A DNA stretch of 64,000 bases. Origin: Escherichia coli. GTDB lineage: Bacteria; Pseudomonadota; Gammaproteobacteria; Enterobacterales; Enterobacteriaceae. Position 1 is the stretch's first letter. Each line of letters starts with the position of its first letter. This document shows positions 34,851-63,557 of the stretch, one piece after another. The stretch lies in assembly GCF_044324875.1 (NCBI RefSeq), contig NZ_CP172185.1. One strand, 5' to 3'. The notes beneath the pieces are model-generated. The model was not told the origin of the DNA and did no database searches. It was given only the letters and a program-made list of their open reading frames with translations. Position numbers and translations under genes: made by a program.

Positions 34851-35471
34851 GTGCTAGACCGCCATCTTCATCCCCGGATTAAACCGTTGTTGCATCAGTG
34901 CGTGCGGGTTCTTGATAAACCGGGCATTACGCCAGATGGTTTAACATTAGTGGGATTTGCCATCGGCGTGCTGGCACTGCCGTTTCTGGCGCTGGGCTGG
35001 TATCTGACGGCGCTAGTCGTCATTTTGTTGAATCGTCTGCTTGATGGTCTGGATGGCGCACTGGCGCGGCGCAGAGGGCTTACCGACGCGGGCGGCTTTC
35101 TCGATATTTCTCTCGATTTTCTCTTTTACGCGCTGGTGCCGTTTGGTTTTATTCTTGCTGCACCGGAGCAAAATGCGCTGGCAGGCGGCTGGCTGCTGTT
35201 TGCGTTTATCGGTACGGGCAGCAGTTTTCTCGCCTTTGCTGCGCTGGCGACGAAACATCAGATTGATAATCCCGGTTATGCGCATAAATCGTTTTATTAT
35301 CTTGGCGGGTTAACCGAAGGCAGCGAGACGATTTTGCTGTTTGTTCTGAGTTGCCTCTTTCCGGCCTGTTTTCCGTGGTTTGCGTGGGTATTTGGTGCGC
35401 TGTGTTGGATGACGACCTTTACGCGGGTGTGGAGTGGGTATCTGACGCTGAAGTCGCTCCAGCGTCAGTAA
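34851..35471 (+). CDS. ynjF: CDP-alcohol phosphatidyltransferase-family membrane protein YnjF
   Basis: Membrane ORF with DG(x)2AR motif (DGLDGALARRRG); RBS AAGGAG 7 nt before GTG 34851 (the track lists an alternative GTG at 34845). Confidence 0.85.
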   Translation: MLDRHLHPRIKPLLHQCVRVLDKPGITPDGLTLVGFAIGVLALPFLALGWYLTALVVILLNRLLDGLDGALARRRGLTDAGGFLDISLDFLFYALVPFGFILAAPEQNALAGGWLLFAFIGTGSSFLAFAALATKHQIDNPGYAHKSFYYLGGLTEGSETILLFVLSCLFPACFPWFAWVFGALCWMTTFTRVWSGYLTLKSLQRQ

Positions 35472-35479
35472 TTGCAATG

Positions 35480-36787
35480 TTATTTGCTGCTGTCCGGGCC
35501 GCGTTCACCGGTTGCTACCGGATTTTTTGGATCGCTGCTCCATTCGTACCAGCCGCCGTCGTAAACGGAGACGTTATTCCAGCCCATTGCTCGTGCGTAC
35601 ATAAAGGTTTCGGACGCGCGCCAGCCGGTGCCGCAGTAGAATGAAACTTGCTGATCTGGTCTGATATTCCATGCTTTCCACATAGCCGTAATATCATCGG
35701 CGCTGCGCATGGTGCCATCCGGGTTATGGAAATCTTCCATATGCGTCGAGTCGCTACCTGCGTGTCCCCAACGTGCTCCGGCTATTTCACCTTTTGGTTT
35801 AATATAGCTGTAACCGCTGGTCGTACCGATAAATTCTGGCCACGAACGAATGCTCACCAGCGATGCATCCTGGCGATGCAGCAGTCCACGCGCCTGTTCC
35901 ATATCAAGCATCAGTTGCGGTTGTGCCGGGATCTTCACGCCGAAATCCGGTTCCGCTTTCACTTTCGGTGGCGTTCCGCGCTCAACGGGCAGTCCCGCGT
36001 CGGACCAGGTTTGCCAGCCGCCGTCCAGCAGGCGGACATCTTTCACGCCAGCGTAGAGCATAATTTGTGCCACACGCGCTGCAGCGTATATGTCACGCCC
36101 GTACAGAATGACCGTGGTGTCATGGCGAATGCCGTGTTTTGCCAGCATCGCTTTTAGTTGTTCATCAGAAACTTTGTTCCACAGCGGTTCGCTTTCTACT
36201 TCGTTGGTATCGATGTAGTCAGCGCCGGGAATATGGCTGATAAGGTAAAGCTTAGGAGCGCCCCAGGCCGCTTCAATGACTTTCCAGTCACCGGCAGGTT
36301 TCGCCGTAACCTCTTTACCTTGTTGCAGGTCGTGCAGCCATTGCGGATAAACCAGCTGCTCAAAGTGCGGCAGTTTTTGTAGACGGGAAGGTTCGCTTAG
36401 TGCGTCGCTCAAAATGGAGATATGCGTAAAACCTGCTTTTTGCAGTCGCGTTTTGACGGCATCGACATCTTTGTCATTACCGTACAGCGCCACCGGAGCA
36501 TCGGCTTTCAGGTTATGTTGCTTGATCCACTCGTTGAGCTGTTCGGTGCTCATTTTGTCGAGCCAGCTAGCAGAGAGGTTTAAGGCGGCAGGTTCATGAC
36601 CGGAAGGGCCATTTAAGGTTTGTGGCCAGCCGTTATAAAACGCGCTGGGGCGAGTATCAATCGCTTTGCCATTTTGTTGTTGAAGCTGGTCAAGTGTAAG
36701 AGGCTTCGCCAGTTCAGCGGCCCACGAAGAAGCGCAAGCCAGCCCTAAAGCCATTGCCAGCGCGGTCATTTGAGAAACACGTTTCAT
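35480..36787 (-). CDS. ynjE: Periplasmic thiosulfate sulfurtransferase (rhodanese) YnjE
   Basis: 435 aa from MKRVSQMTALAMALGLACASSWA (signal peptide); triple-rhodanese architecture with active-site CGTGWR. Confidence 0.88.
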   Translation of the reverse strand: MKRVSQMTALAMALGLACASSWAAELAKPLTLDQLQQQNGKAIDTRPSAFYNGWPQTLNGPSGHEPAALNLSASWLDKMSTEQLNEWIKQHNLKADAPVALYGNDKDVDAVKTRLQKAGFTHISILSDALSEPSRLQKLPHFEQLVYPQWLHDLQQGKEVTAKPAGDWKVIEAAWGAPKLYLISHIPGADYIDTNEVESEPLWNKVSDEQLKAMLAKHGIRHDTTVILYGRDIYAAARVAQIMLYAGVKDVRLLDGGWQTWSDAGLPVERGTPPKVKAEPDFGVKIPAQPQLMLDMEQARGLLHRQDASLVSIRSWPEFIGTTSGYSYIKPKGEIAGARWGHAGSDSTHMEDFHNPDGTMRSADDITAMWKAWNIRPDQQVSFYCGTGWRASETFMYARAMGWNNVSVYDGGWYEWSSDPKNPVATGERGPDSSK

Positions 36788-36853
36788 CGAAAATCCCGAC
36801 ATTGTAGTTTTGAGTGCGCCATTCTGAACTGACGCATTGAGAAAAACTTTGCG

Positions 36854-37507
36854 TTATCGCAGTTTGTTGTAATTTTCTGACCACTGCGCCATATCCAGAA
36901 CAGAACTATCAGCAGGAACATCCTGGAGATCGTGCGTTACCTGAACGACGGGGATCGCCAGGGCGCGAACTTCGCTAAATACCCACTGGCGAAAATTCTC
37001 GCGCAGAGCTACATCAAGACGGCTGAATGGCTCATCCAGTAGCAACGCTTTTGGCTGAGCGAGAAGAGCGCGAAGCAGAGCAACGCGCGCTCGCTGACCA
37101 CCGGACAGAGTAGCAGGATCATGATGGAACATACCGCCAAGCCCCGCACGCTCCAGCGCATCATTTACCGCATCGCGCCTTGCAATACCTTTGAGTGCCG
37201 CTGGCAGAGCCAGCAGTAAATTTTGCCCGACGCTGAACTGGTCAAATAACAGTGCATCCTGGAAAAGAATGCCAATCTGACGCTCTGCGGTGGGTAGCAT
37301 GTCAATCCGTTGCTCATTGAGCCATAGCTCACCTGTACAAGAAAACTGTCCGGCCAGCGCACCAATCATCCATGAAAACAGAGTGGATTTTCCACAGCCA
37401 GACGGCCCCATTAACGTGACAATGTCACATTTATCCACCGTAAAGTTAACGTTTGTCAGCAAGCGGCTTTCTGGTAAACGTAGCGAAACATTTTTCACGC
37501 AGAGCAT
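36854..37507 (-). CDS. ynjD: ABC transporter ATP-binding protein YnjD
   Basis: 217 aa from MLCVKNVSLRLP...; Walker A GPSGCGKST, signature LSGGQRARV; start ATG overlaps the ynjC stop by 1 nt. Confidence 0.88.
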   Translation of the reverse strand: MLCVKNVSLRLPESRLLTNVNFTVDKCDIVTLMGPSGCGKSTLFSWMIGALAGQFSCTGELWLNEQRIDMLPTAERQIGILFQDALLFDQFSVGQNLLLALPAALKGIARRDAVNDALERAGLGGMFHHDPATLSGGQRARVALLRALLAQPKALLLDEPFSRLDVALRENFRQWVFSEVRALAIPVVQVTHDLQDVPADSSVLDMAQWSENYNKLR

Positions 37508-39042
37508 TAGCGGAGTCCTTGTCTGACATAACCTACCCATTTTGCGACTAACGCGGTCAGGGCAAAAATAATAAGCGGTAATAGCAGTTGCCATAAAGCC
37601 TGGGCGGCGAGAATACCGTTGCTGCCGCCGCTGCTTAATGCCACCGCTTCAGTGGTGAGCGTCGGAAAACGCCCCGCGCCCAGCCACAGCGTCGGCATAT
37701 ACTGTGCAATACTGACTGAAAATCCCACCGCGAAGACAATCAGCGCAGGGCGTAGCATGAGTGGGCATTTCACGTAAAAGAAGATTTTGGCCCGCGACCA
37801 GCCCAGTGTTTGCGCAATCAAAATTAACCGTGAATCAATGCGCTGCCAGGCGGGTTGCAGGATAAACAGCATCCACGGCATTACCCACAGCAAATGCCCC
37901 CAGACCACCGCCGTCCAGCTCCCATCCAGGTTCAGCCAGAGCGCCAGCGTGTACTGGCCCGCCACCAGTGGCAGAGCGGGTAATAAAATGGGCAACCATA
38001 GCCAGAAGTGCCGACGTGACGATCCCCATTCCAGCCACGCCAGTATCAGGATTAAAGCGATAAACGTCGCGGTAAGTCCCATCGTCAGGCTATTGATGAG
38101 CGCTTCACTATTGATCGTCGACTGATCCGCGAGGATCGCCAACAGAACCACACACAGCACACCGGTCAAGGGTAAAAAACTCGCCAGCGTAATGCCTGGC
38201 AATAAAGGCGTGGCAGGCTTACGAACGCCATCTACGCGGGGAATAGTACGCCGCCAGCTACGCCATAGCAGATAGCCCAGCAAAACGTAGGCGGCGAGTA
38301 ACAGCATCAGCAGCAGGCTGGCGAGTGCGCCTTTCGTTTGTTGATCGGCGTCGCCCTGAGTTAACCACTGCCAGCTAATTACTGCCAGCGTCGGGGGATT
38401 ACCTGGCCCAAGGATAATCGCCACATCCACGACCGACAGCGACCAGGCGACAATCGCCAGCATCGCCATTGCCAGTGCAGGTGCGACGGAGGGCAACAAC
38501 AGCCAGTTCAGGCATTGCCAGCGGCTGTAGCCCAGCGAATCCAGTACAATAACTTGCTGCAACAGCCGTTTTTCGCTCAATACTGCCGCTAAGATCCACA
38601 GCAGAAATGCGCTTTCTTTCACTGCAAGGGTGAGGCTCAGACCGATGCCAAATCGGTCCATTGGCGGAGTGAAATACGGGAAATAGTCATAAAGCAGCCC
38701 TCCGTCAGCAAAGAGCAGAAGGGCGCTGGTGGCAAAAGCCACATGGGGAATGGCGAGCAGCCACGGCAGACGGGCGCACATACGCTGCCATTTCGGCCCA
38801 GGCCACAGCGCCACAATCACCAGCAGGGCAATCAACAACGCCCCGACCGCCGCGATGGTTGTCGACACCAGCGTTGCCAGTAATGCCTGCGGTAACTGTG
38901 GATCGGCAAATAACGTCTGCCAGTGTGTCAACGACAAAGCAGGCGATATCAGCGTGAGAGCTGCCGGGATCAGCGGTGCATAAATCACCGCCACCATCGC
39001 CCACAGCAAAAAGATTAATGCGTACCGTAACGGTGTAGCCAT
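37507..39042 (-). CDS. ynjC: ABC transporter permease YnjC
   Basis: About 511-aa polytopic membrane ORF with duplicated permease halves; operon with ynjB and ynjD. Confidence 0.85.
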   Translation of the reverse strand: MATPLRYALIFLLWAMVAVIYAPLIPAALTLISPALSLTHWQTLFADPQLPQALLATLVSTTIAAVGALLIALLVIVALWPGPKWQRMCARLPWLLAIPHVAFATSALLLFADGGLLYDYFPYFTPPMDRFGIGLSLTLAVKESAFLLWILAAVLSEKRLLQQVIVLDSLGYSRWQCLNWLLLPSVAPALAMAMLAIVAWSLSVVDVAIILGPGNPPTLAVISWQWLTQGDADQQTKGALASLLLMLLLAAYVLLGYLLWRSWRRTIPRVDGVRKPATPLLPGITLASFLPLTGVLCVVLLAILADQSTINSEALINSLTMGLTATFIALILILAWLEWGSSRRHFWLWLPILLPALPLVAGQYTLALWLNLDGSWTAVVWGHLLWVMPWMLFILQPAWQRIDSRLILIAQTLGWSRAKIFFYVKCPLMLRPALIVFAVGFSVSIAQYMPTLWLGAGRFPTLTTEAVALSSGGSNGILAAQALWQLLLPLIIFALTALVAKWVGYVRQGLR

Positions 39043-40181
39043 TCTTGTTCCAGCGCATTTACCCAACCTGCGTGCGGTTCAGCCAGTACCGGCGGCAGAT
39101 CCTGCGGCATTCTTGATTGCAATATTTCGCGCTGCCCGTCAGGCAGTTTTTGCGGATCGAGAACCGAAGGATCGCCCCAGACAGCAGGGTCTGCTTTACG
39201 CAGTTGTGCATCGGGTGAGAGCAGGAAATTGGCAACTACCTTCGCCGCAGCACTGGCATTCGCGTTGGCGGGAATGGTGACGAAATGCACGTTGCCAATC
39301 ATTCCCTCGCTAAAGCCAAAGCTGTAACTGCTGGCGGGTAAATCGCCGCTGGCGATTTTTTGCTGCGCATGCGCGGGATTAAAGGTCAGCGACAGGCGCA
39401 ATGTGCCGGCTTTCAGCAGAGCATCCATCCGCGCGGGCGAAGGCGGGAAATCCTTTCCTTCGCGCCACAAATACGGATGCAGCGCATCAAGATATTGCCA
39501 CAAGGGAGCAGTGACACGGGCGAAAGTCGCATCGTCCGGCGCTTCTTTTAATGCGGCGGGATCTGGCGTTAGCATAATCAGCAACTGTTCAAGAAACGCC
39601 GTGCCGGTAAAGTCCGGTGGGCGCGGATAGGTAACCGTACCGGGATTGGCTTTAGCAAACTCCAGTAAGGCTTGCGGCGTTTGTGGTGGCTGCGGCGTAA
39701 CATCGCGGCGGGCGATAAACGTCAGTTGCGCGCCCCCCCAGGGCGATTCCGCACCTTGCGTTGGCACTGAAAAATCTTCCCGCACCGGCAGTTGTGTATC
39801 GACATAACGCCAGTTTGGCAGAGTCTCAGCCCAGCCCGTTTGTAATAAATTGGCCTCTTTTAAGGTGCGGAAGTTTTCGCCGTTCACCCAGAGCAGATCC
39901 ACCGAGCCACCTGTTTTGCGTCCGGCAGCAGCTTCGGTCTGAATGCGCTTCACCGCGTCTGCGGCATCCGCGAGACGAACAATCTTCAGGTTTATAGCGT
40001 AATGGGTTTTCATCTCGCCGCTAACCCAGTCGAGATAGCGGTTAATTGCGGTATCGCCGCCCCAGGCGTTAAACCAGACGGTTTGTCCTTTGGCCTCATT
40101 TTTTATTTCCTGCCAGTCACTGGCATGTGTTGCCAAAGAAAACAGCGATAACAATCCCAGCAACCACCCACAATGGCGCAT
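39015..40181 (-). CDS. ynjB: ABC transporter periplasmic substrate-binding protein YnjB
   Basis: 388-aa ORF with signal peptide MRHCGWLLGLLSLFSLATHA; last recognisable core gene before the island. Confidence 0.88.
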   Translation of the reverse strand: MRHCGWLLGLLSLFSLATHASDWQEIKNEAKGQTVWFNAWGGDTAINRYLDWVSGEMKTHYAINLKIVRLADAADAVKRIQTEAAAGRKTGGSVDLLWVNGENFRTLKEANLLQTGWAETLPNWRYVDTQLPVREDFSVPTQGAESPWGGAQLTFIARRDVTPQPPQTPQALLEFAKANPGTVTYPRPPDFTGTAFLEQLLIMLTPDPAALKEAPDDATFARVTAPLWQYLDALHPYLWREGKDFPPSPARMDALLKAGTLRLSLTFNPAHAQQKIASGDLPASSYSFGFSEGMIGNVHFVTIPANANASAAAKVVANFLLSPDAQLRKADPAVWGDPSVLDPQKLPDGQREILQSRMPQDLPPVLAEPHAGWVNALEQEWLHRYGTH

Positions 40182-40411
40182 CTTCTCTCCTTAGGAATAA
40201 AACTAGATGTATAATCTATTGTTTTTTCATTTGTTGTTTTGTTTGTGTTTTTTAGGGGCCACCAATAAGGCCCCTTGCGCAGTTCGAATTCTTCTGGTGC
40301 TATTTTTCCTCTTTTTTCTGTCTTCCTCCATTATTCTGTTTGACTCGATGTTCTGTATTACGAAATCGAATTAGAGGGCAGATACTTAGAAATTACCAGT
40401 TCAGCTTTCCA

Positions 40412-41197
40412 TTAGTTCCGGATGTTTAAACGTGATATGCGCGGAGCCCTTCTTAAAGTATCTGATACTGAACATCTCATCTTCATAGCACTCTTTACCC
40501 TGAACAGACTGGATGTGCCATCCTGATGAATGGTTATGTTTTTCCCGTTGCCGGGGATGGGGGTGCCGCTGAACAGATGTAGCATTCTTTCCAGGTCGGC
40601 GAGTCGGTCAGTCTGTTGTCCGGTGATAAGATGAAATCCCCACCGGTCCCATCTCACCAGATTGTTGATAATGATTTTACTTCCAAATTTACAGGGAGAG
40701 TTGGTTTTATAATTCCAGCTCAGTTCCCTGAAGACGTTAATCACTCCCCGCTTAAACACCTCATCCTTGTTCTGGTGCACTTGTTCAAATGTGCTCAGAA
40801 TGTTCGCTTCACTGATTTCCGGAAAATTATCATATTCCAGTGACCTGTACCATGTATCACGTGCCTGTGCATCCATTAAGGAAAGCATCCCGGAACGCTG
40901 CATCAGGTTACGCCAGATTTCGCGGTCAAGATTCCGGGTAATGGCTTTCATTGCGGTTTCCTGTTTCTCCTTCAGCCAGCAGCCACAGCGAAAATCCTGT
41001 TTCATGGCCCAGTCCGGGGCGGTTTTACCTCCAATACTTTCCGTCAGAATTGAGATTTTAGCCAGTTGCCGGATAAGTGTGTCGATTGGCAACAGTGTAC
41101 TCTTTCGTACAGCCAGAATGTGGCAGACTGAGGTGGAACAGATAACGTCCGTATGCCCGCTGACCACCTCCGGGCGGGAGAGTGTGGTATCTGACAT
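40412..41197 (-). CDS. Island protein, DUF4942-like (gene commonly found after cbtA/yeeW in CP4-type islands)
   Basis: 261-aa ORF at the distal end of the toxin-antitoxin cassette; family assignment is from memory of typical cassette order, not a search. Confidence 0.5.
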   Translation of the reverse strand: MSDTTLSRPEVVSGHTDVICSTSVCHILAVRKSTLLPIDTLIRQLAKISILTESIGGKTAPDWAMKQDFRCGCWLKEKQETAMKAITRNLDREIWRNLMQRSGMLSLMDAQARDTWYRSLEYDNFPEISEANILSTFEQVHQNKDEVFKRGVINVFRELSWNYKTNSPCKFGSKIIINNLVRWDRWGFHLITGQQTDRLADLERMLHLFSGTPIPGNGKNITIHQDGTSSLFRVKSAMKMRCSVSDTLRRAPRISRLNIRN

Positions 41198-53613: not shown

Positions 53614-53916
53614 TCAACGAGGTTTTCTGTCTTTTCGTCGGTCATTCAGCATCATTAAACGGGTCTCTGCCTCTTTCTGTTCCTGTGGTGTCACTTCCCC
53701 GCACGGCTGACCGTTCAGGTTGTAACGGGCGCCACCTGCTATTAACGCACGGTAATAGCGCGGAGACTGCACATAAGACGCCACTGCTGCATGTAATGTA
53801 CCAGCGCCAAACGCCAGTTCTCGGATGGCGATATCCTGTATCAGGTCGTCAGGTATCCCCACTTTAAGTGGTTTTGTTTTTTTCCCGGTTGAATGACTCA
53901 GGCCAGAGTTCCACAA
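53614..53916 (-). CDS. Hypothetical small protein (100 aa); uncertain, possibly a remnant
   Basis: ORF convergent with the alpA module; an adjacent 64-aa ORF (53931-54125) lies on the same strand, so both may be fragments of one decayed gene. Confidence 0.25.
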   Translation of the reverse strand: MWNSGLSHSTGKKTKPLKVGIPDDLIQDIAIRELAFGAGTLHAAVASYVQSPRYYRALIAGGARYNLNGQPCGEVTPQEQKEAETRLMMLNDRRKDRKPR

Positions 53917-54510
53917 GACGAATAATGCGCTTACGGTTTTTGCTCTGGCGTTTTGTCATGTCGCCACGGTGTTTTATCAGCAGGTTTCTGTTTATCGTTC
54001 AACTGTGGTATCTGGTCACCGGCCTTCATTTTGTATGCTGTGTCCGTTTTATCCTGCAGCGGCGTTGCCGGTGATTTACTGAAAATACCCTGCGGTTTAC
54101 GGTTAATGGTCAGAGTTACCATCAATTTTGTTACCTCGCGCTGTCAATGGAAGTAGTACCTCATCCGATATCTGAAAATGTTTTCCGGTGGATGTTACAG
54201 CGAATTTCATGTAAGACATGTTGTTGTCGGTATTGTTCAGTACTGTGCGTTGTGAGCGTATTCGTTATCAGACAGAGGGGCAGGGAACAAACGTCAGAGG
54301 TTAAGGATATCCGGGAACAAATGGCGTAAACGGACATCTCAGTGCCTGAGAAACAGTACAGGTCAGGCCATCATGGCCTGCAAACAGAGCCCTGGCGACC
54401 CCGTGGCCGAAAACGAAACAATAACCCGCGCGCAGTGCGAGGAATCCGGATGTGAAGCAATCAGCAGGTAATATTAATGGCAGGACCAGCAGGTTCTTTA
54501 AACAAACGAA

Positions 54511-55273
54511 GGTGGTGACTCCAATTAGTAGAACATATATTTTTCGATAAAGGCACCGATGACTTTTTCATGAAGTTCTACAGAGCGCGAGAAACAGATA
54601 GTTCTGCGGGCCAGACGTTTGATTCGGGTTCTCAGAGGTAGATGTTGCGCTCAATGCGCTGAGTAAAAATCTTACCAGTCAGATGCTTCTCCTTCGGTAA
54701 CTCTCTGGTGTAACTACCCCATTCGTCAGTGGTCAACATACCGATGGTAAAAGGGCAAGCAGCGCCAGCAATTCACGACAGGTTTAATCAGTCCGTAGGC
54801 CAAAAGTGTAGGCCAGAACGCCACCAGTTTTCGTGTTGTACGTGTACCAGAGCCAGTGCTGTCGCGCTTTACTGCCGACAAAACTCCATTGCTCATCAAG
54901 TTCGCAGATGAGTGCCATATCAGCATGAGCGACCGGGTATGACGTTATTCTTCGTGGCGAGAGTTTTTTAAAGTCCGGATGACAGTATTAATGCCGATTT
55001 TCAGCGTACGGGCAGTATCGCGAACTCCGGCACCGTTGAAAGCCATTTCAGTGATTTGCTCTTTAACTCCCGGTTTACGGGCCTCGTAACGGTAAGTGAG
55101 CTGAAGCACTCGATGACAGTCACGGCAGCGAAATCGATCATGTCCTTTGGGTTCTTCCCGTGACGGTAAACCTGAACGGACTGGCAACAGGAGCAATGAA
55201 GGTTAACTGTGACCATGAAAGAACCTTAAAAGTGGCTATTATACTCCTAATTCAACTAATTGGAGTCATTACC
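54511..55273 (-). mobile_element. IS1-family insertion sequence (divergent isoform), apparently defective
   Basis: 763 bp; terminal repeats GGTGGTGACTCCAATTAGTAG (left) and AATTGGAGTCATTACC (right); InsA-like and InsB-like coding on the minus strand, each split across two frames. Confidence 0.8.
54945..55216 (-). pseudogene. insA: insA-like gene with internal frameshift
   Basis: Zn-finger N-terminus (MVTVNLHCSCCQSVQVYRHGKNPK) is in one frame and the HTH C-terminus (GHDRFRCRDCHRVLQLTY...AFNGAGVRDTARTLKIGINTVIRTLKNS) in another; downstream InsB-like sequence (...RTRIKRLARRTICFSRSVELHEKVIGAFIEKYMFY) is also split. Confidence 0.6.
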
Positions 55274-55281
55274 GTATTCAT

Positions 55282-55452
55282 AATGGATTAGGTTCAGCAG
55301 TTGCTGAAGTGCTTGTAGAAACTTGTCCTGTGCCCATGCGTCGGGTGGGGGTTAAAGAGCGGTATGGCCAGGTTGAAACTCAGGACTTTTTACAGAGAGA
55401 GTACGGGTTAACCGCGCAAGCTATTGTGGCGGCAGCCAGAGAGCTATTGTAA
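55282..55452 (+). pseudogene. Transketolase C-terminal-domain remnant, truncated by the IS1 insertion
   Basis: Frame encodes ...GLGSAVAEVLVETCPVPMRRVGVKERYGQVETQDFLQREYGLTAQAIVAAARELL-stop, a typical transketolase C-terminal tail, beginning immediately after the IS1 right end with no upstream gene body. Confidence 0.55.
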
Positions 55453-55653
55453 TTCATGGAGTTTGTTTACCATTCTGTTTTTCTTAAAAGTGAGTGTCTG
55501 TGCGGTCACTAAACTCGGTAATAAAGCAGTTCATTGCAGGATAAGAAGCGTTTGGTTGTGTCGTTTTACCGTAAGAACCGACCGCCGTATGTATCCATTA
55601 AGCCAGTATTGGTAACGTAGGTGCCCACCTTTTCAAACTGGTGGGCGCCTGTT

Positions 55654-55826
55654 ATGGAGCAAAAACATTATCCGCAGAACCCCGCAGATCATTTTCAAAT
55701 GAGTTAAACTTCAAATGGTTAAACTGGTTTTGCAACCAGGAGCCTCTGTTGCCCGTATTGCCCGGGAACACGATATCAATGATAACCTCCTGTTCAAATG
55801 GCTCAGACTCTGGCAGAACGTAAGGT
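55654..55826 (+). pseudogene. Transposase helper (HTH OrfA-type) remnant of an unidentified IS
   Basis: Short frames encoding MEQKHYPQNPADHFQMS-stop and ...LQPGASVARIAREHDINDNLLFKWLRLWQ, resembling IS OrfA HTH segments; interrupted by stops. Confidence 0.3.
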
Positions 55827-55904
55827 AAAGGGAGATGAAAAAGGCAATAGCAGAACTGAGTGACAGTGAAACCATTCTGGCGTACAGGGTTGGATGGTGA
55901 AACT

Positions 55905-55938: not shown

Positions 55939-56649
55939 GTAGTCAAAAATGGTAGATATTTACGATGCAGTAATGCTTTCACTCCGGTAATTAATTTCCG
56001 TGATTAACTGCTTTCGATCAATAAAGGAATTGCAAAAGTGTGATCTTGTTCACGACATTGTGGATGATAATATGCCTGATGTCTGAATCCGGAAACAGTG
56101 ATCTGGCGGTTTCATGTGAAGTTGACGGATAAAAAATCCGCACGACCAGACAGACGTGCGGTTTACGAAATTCGTAACAAGAGGCTTTTCTACGGATCAC
56201 GTGGTGCGTGCCACGTGAAATTTTTGTAGCGCAAAATGTGTGATGTGTAAATACAAGGAAGGAAAAAAGTTAAATCGGTGGAAGTCCATGCCTGCCACAT
56301 GTATGTCTGCATTCCTCGTTTTGAACAGAATTCTCACCAGACATCGTGAATTTCTCATTCAATCATCAGAGATATTACCCAGGATTTTTATTGTTTTGTG
56401 ATAGCAGTACTTTAAATGTTCAGATGCTAAAATAAGCGCGCTTATTATAATTATAGTTATGATGTTTTATCTGTATGTATTTTAATGATTTTCGCGTCAT
56501 TGCTTTTCTGCTGCTTAAATTGAAGGCGCATATTATACACAATAATATTCCTGGCATTATTAAATTAATAAAAGAGGATTCTTATCACTGTATTTTTGCT
56601 CCGCACTACCGTTCTGGCTGGTGAAGTAATAATACAGGAGAATAACAGA

Positions 56650-58197
56650 ATGCTTAAAAGACGTGATGCTTTTTTAAAGAAAAGCGCGCTGGCAGTGAGT
56701 GTGGCCCTGCTGCTCTCGGCTCAGGCTCAGGCTCAGGATATTTTAATCGGACCGATTGAACCTGGCGAAGATAATAGCTTTCTTGTTGGAGAATCAGTAG
56801 CTGGCCGTTCGATTGATAAAGTAAGAAATGTATGGTTGATTGGTGATGATTCTTTTTTATTAGACTCAAACAGGACTGTGCTTTTGGGGAATAATTCTGA
56901 TGTTGTGAACTCTCCGGGAAGTGTGAGTCTGGGGCATGATGCACTTATTGCTGACTCTGAATGGGGGACTGTTGCAGGAAAAGAAGCGTCACTTATTTCT
57001 TCTCGTCAGAGCTCGGCAATTGGTGCGTTTTCATCTGTGCAGGATTCTACCAGTTCTGTAGCTCTGGGCCATGGCTCACAGGTGTCGGGAGAAAATAACG
57101 TGGTATCTGTTGGTGCCGGGCCTGAGGGATATGGAGAGAGTGTCAAAGGAGCACCGGAAACCCGCCGGATTATAAATGTGTCTGATGGTATCAATAACAC
57201 AGATGCAGCGACGGTAGGGCAACTGAATGAACGATTTGATGATGCACAGGTCTTTTTGTTGCAGACGAATGAAAGAATTGACGAGACAGATAAACGTCTT
57301 TCAACAGTTCATGCTGAACTCAGCAGGGATATTATTGCAGGCACATCGGCAGCGGTGACGTATACAGATGTAACAGCGCTTGCACTTCAGGATGAGATAA
57401 AGGATGGGACGAACAAAGTACGTGATGAGTTGAAATCACAGGGAGACAGTCTGCGTGGTGAGATAGGCGGTGTATACAGAGATGCCCGTGCTCATACTGA
57501 CAGTCAGGTCACAGCAGTACGTGATGAACTGAAGGCAGAGGGAGACAGTCTGCGCGGTGAGATAGGCGGTGTATACAGAGATGCCCGTGCTCATACTGAC
57601 AGTCAGGTTACAGCAGTACGTGATGAACTCAGCAGGGATATTATTGCAGGCACATCGGCAGCGGTGGCGTATACGGATGCATCTTCTCTTGCTCTTCAGG
57701 ATGAAATAAAAGAAAAAGCGGATGAAACAGTTCAGGTTTCCCGGGCTTATACAGATAAAAGTGTACGGGATGCCCGTAAAGAAGCGAAAAGCCAGGCAGA
57801 ACATCTCAGCGATGTGCTTGTGAAGAACAGGGCGCAGACGGATGCAGCAATAGCCTCAAATACAGCAGCGATAAGGAATAACAGTCATCGTCTGGATTTG
57901 ACGGAAGCCTGGCAGAAGATGGCGACAGAGAGAATGAATAATATGCAGGAGCAGATTAAAGAGAACCGGAAGGAGTTAAGGGAGAGTGCAGCCCAGAGCG
58001 CGGCACTGGCAGGTCTTTTCCAGCCATACAGTGTTGGAAAATTTAACGCGACAGCAGCCGTTGGTGGTTACCGTGATGAGCAGGCCATTGCGGTGGGCGT
58101 GGGCTACCGTTTCACAGAGAATGTGGCAGGAAAAGTTGCAGTTGCTGCAGGTGGGTCATCCGCATCGTGGAATGCTGGTGTGAATTTTGAGTTCTGA
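56650..58197 (+). CDS. YadA-type trimeric autotransporter adhesin (515 aa; Eib/Saa-like size class)
   Basis: Signal peptide [29 protein letters not shown], repetitive coiled-coil stalk, and C-terminal YadA-like anchor ending ...[19 protein letters not shown] 9 nt upstream; AT-rich 5' region. Confidence 0.8.
57313..57730 (+). repeat. In-frame tandem and nested repeats inside the adhesin stalk
   Basis: A 105-bp unit (...[33 protein letters not shown]) occurs twice in tandem (about 57424-57528 and 57529-57633), flanked by two copies of a second roughly 100-bp unit ([16 protein letters not shown]...ALQDEIK) at 57313 and 57625. Confidence 0.7.
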
Positions 58198-58714: not shown

Positions 58715-58788
58715 TGTATCTTATATTGTGATATTGAACCGCCCCGGGAATCCTGGAGACTAAACTCCCTGAGAAAGAGGTAAACAGA

Positions 58789-59115
58789 ATGACTAAAAAT
58801 ACTCGTTTTTCCCCCGAAGTCCGTCAGAGGGCGATTCGTATGGTTCTGGAAAGTCAGGGCGAATATGACTCACAGTGGGCGGCAATTTGTTCCATTGCCC
58901 CAAAGATTGGCTGTACACCGGAGACTCTGCGTGTCTGGGTACGCCAGCATGAGCGGGATACCGGAGGCGGTGATGGCGGGCTCACCACCGCTGAACGTCA
59001 GCGTCTGAAAGAGCTGGAACGTGAAAATCGTGAACTGCGCCGCAGTAACGATATCCTTCGCCAGGCTTCCGCTTATTTTGCGAAGGCGGAGTTCGACCGC
59101 CTCTGGAAAAAGTGA
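58789..59115 (+). CDS. IS629 transposase OrfA
   Basis: 108-aa [63 protein letters not shown]... matching IS629 OrfA. Confidence 0.9.
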
Positions 59116-60002
59116 TGCCACTGCTGGATAAGCTGCGTAAGCTGTACGGGGTCGGACCGGTATGCAGTGAACTACATATTGCCCCGTCAACGTATTACCA
59201 CTGTCAGCAACAGCGACATCATCCTGATAAACGCAGTGCCCGTGCGCAGCGCGATGACTGGCTGAAGAAAGAGATACTGCGCGTATACGATGGGAATCAT
59301 CAGGTATACGGTGTGCGTAAAGTCTGGCGTCAGTTGTTACGGGAAGGAATCAGGGTAGCCAGATGTACAGTGGCGCGCCTCATGGCGGTTATGGGACTTG
59401 CCGGTGTTCTCCGGGGTAAAAAGGTCCGCACTACCGTCAGCCGGAAAGCCGTTGCCGCAGGCGACCGCGTAAACCGTCAGTTTGTGGCAGAACGTCCTGA
59501 CCAGTTGTGGGTGGCTGATTTTACTTACGTCAGCACATGGCAGGGGGTCGTCTATGTGGCGTTCATCATTGATGTGTTTGCCGGATACATCGTGGGGTGG
59601 CGGGTCTCATCGTCTATGGAAACGACATTCGTGCTGGATGCTCTGGAGCAGGCGTTATGGGCCCGTCGACCGTCCGGCACAGTCCATCACAGTGATAAAG
59701 GTTCTCAGTATGTATCGCTGGCCTACACACAGCGGCTTAAGGAAGCCGGATTACTGGCATCAACAGGAAGTACTGGTGACTCGTATGACAACGCGATGGC
59801 GGAGAGCATCAATGGCCTTTACAAAGCGGAGGTAATACACCGTAAGAGCTGGAAAAACCGGACAGAAGTGGAGCTGGCCACACTCACGTGGGTGGACTGG
59901 TATAACAATCGACGATTGCTGGAAAGGCTGGGCCATATCCCACCGGCAGAAGCAGAAAAAGCTTATTATGCTTCCATCGGAAACGATGATCTGGCAGCCT
60001 GA
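59112..60002 (+). CDS. IS629 transposase OrfB (DDE integrase core)
   Basis: 296-aa ORF overlapping orfA by 4 nt; motifs [16 protein letters not shown] and [15 protein letters not shown]. Confidence 0.9.
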
Positions 60003-60410
60003 GTTCACAGATAAAACACTCTCCAGGAAACCCGGGGCGGTTCATATCGGTGCTGCTGCTGTTATTTTTTGTTGTATTTGTGACGAATGGTTAAGAATAA
60101 AACATGAGTTGGTGATTATCAGGACAGGTTGCTTGTATATGAAGATAACAAAGGCGGCATTTATTTTTGCGCTGTCAGTGTGGAGTGTTGCTGTGATATG
60201 TCTTTTATTATTTGTACTGGTTGTTCTGGGATAGCTATAGTGGAATTATTATTTTTTTAAGACTATGGTTTATATTTTTATTCGGCAATATTTCTGTAAA
60301 CAATTAAATATCAGAAAGGCGTGTTGTATGCGTGAACACGCCTGAGTATGTATACAGAGATTGTTAATTTGGAGAGAATAATTACAGTTGTTATTTATTT
60401 GACGTCCTGA

Positions 60411-62018: not shown

Positions 62019-63557
62019 TTATTCAGCTGGCAGTGCTATGCGCCACGGAAGCAGTTCGCTGACCCGGTTGACCGGCCAGTCTGCTATGACGCCAAGCACA
62101 TGGCGAAGGTAGCTTTCTGGATCCACGTCATTCAGTTTGCACGTCCCTATCAGGCTGTACAGTAGCGCTCCCCGCTCACCACCATGGCCAGAGCCGAAGA
62201 ACAGGAAGTTTTTACGACCCAGACTTACCGCCCGCAGGGCATTTTCAGCGATGTTGTTGTCGATTTCCACCCAGCCATCGTTCGCATAGTACGTCAGTGC
62301 CGGCCACTGGTTAAGTGCGTACGCGAACGCCTTCGCCAACTCTGAGTGTCGCGACAGGGTCTTCATCTTTTCACGCAACCAGCTTTCCAGGGATTTCAAC
62401 AGCGGTTTCGTTTTTCGCTGACGTTCAGCAAGCCGCTGCTCTGCCGGCATTCCCCTTATATCCGCCTCTATGGCGTACAACTGACCGATCTGCTCCAGGG
62501 CTTCTTCCGTCAGTGCTGACGGGATGCGGACGTGCACATCGTGGATCTTTCGGCGGGCATGAGCCCAGCAGGCAGCTTCCGTTATCCCACCATTGCGATA
62601 CAGCTCGTTGAACCCGGCGTACGCATCCGCTTGCAGCACACCGCTGAAGCAAGCAAGATGAGTCTGCGGATGGATGCCTTTTCTGTCCGGGCTGTAAGCG
62701 AACCACACTGCAGGTGCCAACGCTGACCCGGCATTGCGGTCATCACGAACATACGCCCACAACCGCCCGGTCTTCGTCTTCTTATTACCCGGCATCAGTA
62801 CCTGGACCGGGGTATCATCGGCATGGAGTTTGCCGTCAGTCATGACATAGCCATGAAGCGCCTCTTCCAGCGGAGACAGCAGCCGGCAGCATGCATCCAC
62901 CCAGCCCGACAGCAGTGAACGGCTCAGCTCCACACCTTGCCGGCCGTATATTTCTGACTGGCGATACAGCGGGGTGTGCTCTGCATACTTCGAGGTCAGC
63001 ACGCGGGCCAGCAGCCCCGGTCCGGCGATACCCCGCTCGATGGGCCGCGAAGGTGCAGGTGCCTGCACGATGGCATCGCACTGAGTACAGGCATGTTTTT
63101 CCCGTACCGTCCGGATAACCCGGAAGGCGCTACGCATCAACTCCAGCTGTTCGGCGGTATCCTCGCCCAGATAGCTCAGTGAACCGCCGCAGTTCGGGCA
63201 GCACGGCGCCGCAGGCAACAGTCGCTTTTCGTCACGGGGTAGTGATTCAGGGAACGGCTTACGGATGCGGGTCTGACGCAACGGACGCTGTACTGCCGGG
63301 TCATACACCCTACCAGTCAGCGTATCGCTCTCTTTCTGAAGCCGGTTCAGATCGGCTTCCATTTGTGCGATACGGCGGGAGACTTTTTCGGAACGACTGC
63401 CGAAGTTCATCCGGCGGAGTTTATCCAGCTGCGCCTGCAGATGGTCTATTTCGCGCTCCCGGTTGCTCAGCTTTTCCTGCAGGGCGTGGATCAGCGCTTC
63501 CTGTTCGGCCAGGCGCTGTTTCAGCAGGAAGATGTCGTCAGAAGAGATGTCGTTCAT
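62019..63557 (-). CDS. IS66-family transposase (large ORF)
   Basis: 512-aa ORF with N-terminal coiled coil ([20 protein letters not shown]), zinc-finger CCPNCGG...CTQCD and DDE core typical of IS66 transposases. Confidence 0.85.

Follow-up and report, generated by a model that had tools for sequence, protein, structure and literature searches.

Here, we identify a dead IS1-family element in a 64-kb stretch of Escherichia coli DNA (the window) as the mark of an IS-associated deletion of a 5.3-kb operon. We put the probability of this overall account, as distinct from any specific route to the deletion, at about 0.9. In the scenario that we propose, an IS1-family element would first have entered a six-gene operon carried on a genomic island, and a deletion with one edge at an IS end would then have removed 5,283 bp. 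One end of the IS would thereby have come to border intergenic DNA downstream of the regulator gene, and the other end codon 260 of the transketolase C-subunit gene. Subsequently, the IS would have gathered three 1-bp deletions and a nonsense codon. The features of the locus are collected in Table 1.

Table 1. Features at the deleted locus, with positions numbered along the window
Feature	Position	Strand	Details
Left flank	54313-54510	.	100% identical to FORC_082 locus 34049-34246, ending 207 bp downstream of the LacI-family gene
Defective IS1-family insertion sequence	54511-55273	- (transposase)	763 bp; alignment to intact copies, Pfam, PGAP label
Right inverted repeat, insB side	54511-54533	+	GGTGGTGACTCCAATTAGTAGAA
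Left inverted repeat, insA side	55251-55273	-	GGTAATGACTCCAATTAGTTGAA, read on the - strand; adjoins the transketolase fragment
insA-insB' transposase pseudogene	54525-55216	-	PGAP pseudo-CDS coordinates, converted
1-bp deletion in an A-run (A4>A3), insA codon 23	55146-55148	-	Alignment to intact copies
Nonsense GAA>TAA (G>T) in insB	54786-54784	-	Alignment to intact copies
1-bp deletion in a C-run (C4>C3), insB	54753-54755	-	Alignment to intact copies
1-bp deletion in insB, outside a homopolymer	between 54644 and 54643	-	Alignment to intact copies
3' remnant of the split-transketolase C-subunit gene	55274-55452	+	58 codons plus stop, in frame from 55276
IS66-family end with frameshifted TnpA (HTH_Tnp_1) fragment	55576-55830	+	124 bp downstream of the transketolase stop codon

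The deletion is evident from comparison with E. coli FORC_082, which has the undeleted arrangement. By BLAST, both flanks of the IS1 copy align to the FORC_082 locus right up to the IS ends: the left breakpoint lies at 54510/54511, and the window from 55274 onward corresponds to the FORC_082 locus from 39530 onward. The IS replaces exactly 5,283 bp (FORC_082 locus 34247-39529), and the breakpoints fall exactly at the IS termini, with clean junctions on both sides. Lost are the genes for the LacI-family regulator, PTS IIA, IIB, and IIC (ascorbate family), and the transketolase N-subunit together with ∼258-259 codons of the C-subunit gene, i.e., the entire operon is gone from the window locus, the regulator included. 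The neighbors are the same in FORC_082 as in the window, with a YagK/YfjJ-family gene, hypothetical genes, an HTH regulator gene, and a ProQ/FinO-family gene on the left, and the IS66-family TnpA fragment, a YadA-like gene, and a sigma-factor-like gene on the right. The first-pass annotation of this DNA had proposed that an IS1-mediated deletion took most of a sugar-metabolism gene and probably its operon; the comparison bears this out, with 5,283 bp including the whole operon missing relative to FORC_082. A target-site duplication of 8-9 bp is absent around the window IS, the flanks CAAACGAA and GTATTCAT being different. Such an absence is expected for an IS-associated deletion, and we attribute it to the loss of the 5,283 bp. 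IS-adjacent deletion and recombination between IS copies are both documented causes of missing target-site duplications (PMC11708052).

Formally, a comparison of insertion with deletion is symmetrical, and on this point only could the truncated state be read as ancestral, with the operon inserted later in FORC_082-like strains. However, the window retains, in frame, the 3' end of a gene whose complete and colinear version is found in FORC_082, ECCNB12-2, and Salmonella (86% amino-acid identity for the latter), and a gene cannot arise by insertion of its initial 259 codons exactly in front of a matching tail that was already there. We therefore reject a gain of the operon, the probability of which we consider negligible. 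Because the complete colinear gene exists in both E. coli and Salmonella, the direction of change is unambiguously loss.

The transketolase remnant directly adjoins the IS end and is without a start codon, promoter, or upstream body. The translation of 55276-55452 is IHNGLGSAVAEVLVETCPVPMRRVGVKERYGQVETQDFLQREYGLTAQAIVAAARELL*. It corresponds to residues 260-317 of the 317-aa FORC_082 protein, with 56 of 58 residues identical. The full-length FORC_082 protein carries the Transket_pyr (PF02779) and Transketolase_C (PF02780) domains with high significance in Pfam, whereas the remnant alone matches PF02780 with E=0.0068 and 16.8 bits, falling short of the curated cut-off of 25.9 bits, and does not match PF02779. 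The assignment to the transketolase C-subunit is based on the 56/58 identity and on DNA colinearity with the FORC_082 homolog. Because a 276-aa Transketolase_N protein precedes the 317-aa C-subunit in FORC_082, we conclude that the enzyme is a split transketolase. In the window, a complete ORF with an upstream N-subunit partner (PF00456) is absent; the N-subunit gene is missing entirely, as are 259 codons of the C-subunit gene. At the nucleotide level, the remnant differs from the two intact E. coli copies at 2-3 of 179 positions, and one of the changes converts GQVG to GQVE, replacing a Gly on which the two intact E. coli copies and Salmonella agree. Judged from its sequence, the 58-codon remnant is a non-functional pseudogene, and PGAP labels it [quoted passage not shown] The suggestion made from the sequence alone that the last ∼55 codons of a transketolase-family gene abut the IS holds, with an exact count of 58, and the search for intact homologs and their context that had been recommended leads to the full operon of FORC_082, in which the matching C-subunit is encoded.

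An operon with the same gene order lies between yfcD and yfcC in Salmonella enterica. Both operons comprise genes for a LacI-family regulator, PTS IIA, IIB, and IIC, a 276-aa N-subunit, and a 317-aa C-subunit, and the E. coli C-subunit is 86% identical to that of Salmonella over its full length. We take the Salmonella yfcD-yfcC split-transketolase operon to be the tktC locus, STM2340-STM2341. By contrast to the location between yfcD and yfcC, the E. coli operon resides in a mobile island, where it is flanked by IS remnants, and the window keeps only 58 codons of it. The literature (PMC12651746) refers to tktC as a third transketolase gene of Salmonella.

The element at the breakpoint is a member of the IS1 family by descent. 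IS1 elements are ∼768 bp long with imperfect inverted repeats of ∼23 bp; the window copy measures 763 bp and its intact relatives 766 bp. A plasmid nucleotide search identified these relatives, which are 96.6-97.3% identical to the window copy and have an intact annotated transposase CDS, on E. marmotae pEM148 and on an S. enterica plasmid. Alignment to the 766-bp copies sets the IS termini at GGTAATG... and ...CACCACC and shows that both terminal inverted repeats of the window copy are intact. The ends of the element are confirmed by the pEM148 copy, which is bordered by an 8-bp direct repeat (TGGTAAGT). Canonical IS1A of E. coli K-12 is not matched by the window IS in blastn; in global alignment, the two are ∼58% identical in nucleotides, and InsA and InsB are 42.5 and 45.8% identical, respectively. 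IS1A is thus ill suited as a reference, and the 766-bp plasmid copies took its place. Nevertheless, the window copy resembles IS1A in its size of ∼766 bp and in its ∼23-bp inverted repeats starting with GGT. With the family at large it shares the arrangement of insA (zinc ribbon and HTH) followed by insB' (DDE) in the -1 frame, with an A6C motif. An 8-bp target duplication is seen in the intact isoform copy, whereas the window copy is dead and without a duplication.

The nearest named isoform is represented by chromosomal copies that PGAP calls IS1H-like, to which the window IS is ∼92% identical. These copies adjoin Rhs elements (the metJ-yiiX-Rhs locus) in about 2,400 genomes and are annotated as frameshifted themselves. 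Intact copies of the IS1 sub-lineage of the window seem to be rare in E. coli and were found mainly on plasmids of other species.

The coding regions of the window copy are broken. Pfam matches are scattered across short ORF pieces of the - strand that lie in different frames: the InsA zinc ribbon (PF03811, Zn_ribbon_InsA) is recognized with E=8.8e-9 on the N-terminal ORF piece, the InsA HTH (PF12759, HTH_Tnp_IS1) with E=1.4e-30, and DDE_Tnp_IS1 (PF03400) on two insB pieces with E=1.8e-21 and 7.5e-12. The reference intact element encodes a 90-aa InsA followed by the slippery site TTTAAAAAAC and InsB' in the -1 frame. This programmed -1 motif, of the A6C type, is kept in the window copy at 54963-54972; a difference in frame between insA and insB is therefore normal in itself, and it is the extra shifts that are defects. 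Relative to the intact 766-bp relatives, the window copy has lost a single base at three sites, of which one lies in insA and two lie in insB. The deletion in insA places the zinc-ribbon and HTH pieces in different frames. Missense changes include P9S and R10C in the InsA zinc ribbon. Alignment to the intact copies thus substantiates the earlier proposal that both insA and insB are frameshifted: the shifts are real and go beyond the programmed -1 event, and insB in addition contains a nonsense codon. Coding capacity for a functional transposase is absent from the window copy. With its three 1-bp deletions and its nonsense codon, the IS is predicted to have lost the ability to produce either InsA or the InsAB' transposase.

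Some sequencing platforms are prone to errors in short homopolymer runs, where two of the three 1-bp deletions are located, and apparent frameshifts in a truly intact IS could in general stem from sequencing or assembly errors. This explanation is very improbable here. First, the affected runs have just 3-4 bases, one of the deletions lies outside any homopolymer, and one of the lesions is a substitution to TAA. Second, the three deletions and the nonsense codon recur without gaps in the independent assemblies of SMS-3-5, TUM9803, and EC974. Over the 1401-bp stretch 54300-55700, these three are gap-free and 99.8-100% identical to the window, with two mismatches in SMS-3-5, none in TUM9803, and three in EC974. 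The lesions are common to all four assemblies aligned; SCU-115 has one extra private base at 54866, which is outside the three shared deletions. Third, 289 of the 5,426 complete E. coli genomes cover at least 80% of the 1401-bp stretch, the threshold by which we counted carriers of the deleted-allele junction, and an identity of at least 99% to it is reached in 288 records. In matching genomes, the RefSeq/PGAP label is “IS1 family transposase, frameshifted; internal stop.” With the same lesions in independent assemblies, we reject sequencing error.

The intact 6-kb operon region is kept (at least 80% coverage) in 132 complete E. coli genomes versus the 289 with the deleted allele. The deleted allele is found at several chromosomal positions and on one plasmid-labeled record, and many of its carriers are poultry or extraintestinal isolates. 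Some strains have two related islands, one with the intact operon and the other with the deleted allele. In one of them, ECCNB12-2, the intact PTS/split-transketolase operon is located in a second, paralogous island (NZ_CP033635.1 5165743-5181892) and the IS1-deleted allele elsewhere in the chromosome. Therefore, the deleted allele does not always equate to loss of the function from the genome.

With regard to the route, we lean slightly toward an intramolecular, transposase-mediated adjacent deletion, which is classical IS1 behavior; since the early studies of the gal region, IS1 has been the classical deletion-forming IS. Possible, though in our view unlikely, is a route that starts from two directly oriented IS1 copies of this isoform, located downstream of the regulator gene and within the C-subunit gene, respectively; RecA-dependent recombination between them would remove the interval and leave a single hybrid copy. 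The end product would be identical, i.e., non-matching flanks with both breakpoints at IS termini. Moreover, the island is rich in IS elements, and recombination between IS copies is a common cause of missing duplications (PMC11708052). However, this route needs a rare isoform to have inserted twice, independently, within 5.3 kb, and no genome with IS1 at either site and the operon in place was found among the 5,426 complete E. coli genomes. Such intermediates, in which IS1 sits at either breakpoint with the operon still attached, were sought with two junction queries at a coverage of at least 80%. The junctions were queried separately, as a combined chimeric query joined the IS ends of deleted alleles into places of 50% coverage and masked intermediates. 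No intermediate was found among the complete E. coli genomes, so that the two-step history is a reconstruction. Adjacent deletion is favored over two-copy recombination on grounds of parsimony. The final structure is equally compatible with two-copy recombination or with insertion of the IS into a break during the deletion, and routes other than adjacent deletion and two-copy recombination take up the remaining share of the probability. The IS150 and IS1 deletions of the LTEE (PMC11708052) share with the window event an IS-centered deletion, no target-site duplication, and breakpoints at an IS terminus. By contrast, the window event is old, fixed, and spread over many lineages, while the time series of the LTEE documents the insertion-only stage.

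The first-pass annotation had also placed the decay of the IS after the deletion. The comparison with FORC_082 and the lesions establish both the deletion and the decay; their order we infer from the consideration that a transposase must be active for the element to transpose. In principle, the lesions could predate the deletion, with transposase supplied in trans.

Altogether, the feature in the window is an ordinary scar of IS-mediated gene loss in an IS-rich island and a textbook case of genome decay. It involves no new mechanism or gene family and is of little import beyond local annotation. The pseudogene status of its parts is already known, RefSeq/PGAP labeling all three features (IS1, transketolase, and IS66) as pseudogenes. 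Our findings document the loss of an accessory carbohydrate operon from a widespread E. coli island at base-pair resolution, and they identify the RefSeq calls for IS1, transketolase, and IS66 as real shared decay and not as assembly errors. The deleted allele could find use in marking lineages or the island. Because it is approximately twice as common as the intact operon (289 vs. 132), has many poultry or extraintestinal isolates among its carriers, and occupies several positions, the question arises whether loss of the operon is pathoadaptive and not neutral. We consider this improbable; if true, selection could favor and spread the deleted version of the island.

The island starts adjoining ynjB at ∼40.2-40.4 kb of the window (about 40200-40420), and SCU-115 has the same junction. 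The backbone is CP4-like, with genes for a CbtA/YeeU toxin-antitoxin system, antirestriction, DUF932, and GTPase proteins. No tRNA gene is present within the 64-kb window. In the closest relatives, the island runs on into the aerobactin iuc genes. The region is full of further IS remnants. The IS66-family fragment to the right of the transketolase remnant is also present in the undeleted FORC_082 locus and, therefore, is older than the IS1 event. To the left of IS1, the ProQ/FinO-family gene (53614-54125, - strand) is broken into two ORF pieces and is labeled as frameshifted by PGAP in matching genomes, while it is intact in FORC_082 with 480 nt. The frameshift is thus a further sign of decay of the island.

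Several minor observations concern the DNA to the right. Compared with FORC_082, the window contains an inserted IS3-family element at 58735-60044 (1,310 bp; inverted repeats, TGAACCGCCCCGGG...). Unlike IS1, it has a 3-bp TAT target duplication and, thus, represents a simple insertion; its ORF at 59112-60002 encodes rve and HTH_21 domains. The right-hand part, where the TnpC gene of an IS66-family element is located, is not matched throughout by any of the complete genomes in the collection, and the coverage of 40000-64000 does not exceed 78% in any of them. This transposase gene (62019-63557, - strand) is apparently intact and encodes 512 aa with all four IS66 domains. The YadA-like gene (56596-58197) encodes a trimeric autotransporter of 533 aa and contains a 99-bp tandem repeat in 2.2 copies (57417-57629). 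Across the genomes examined, the length of this gene varies from 1110 to 1602 nt, presumably via the number of repeats.
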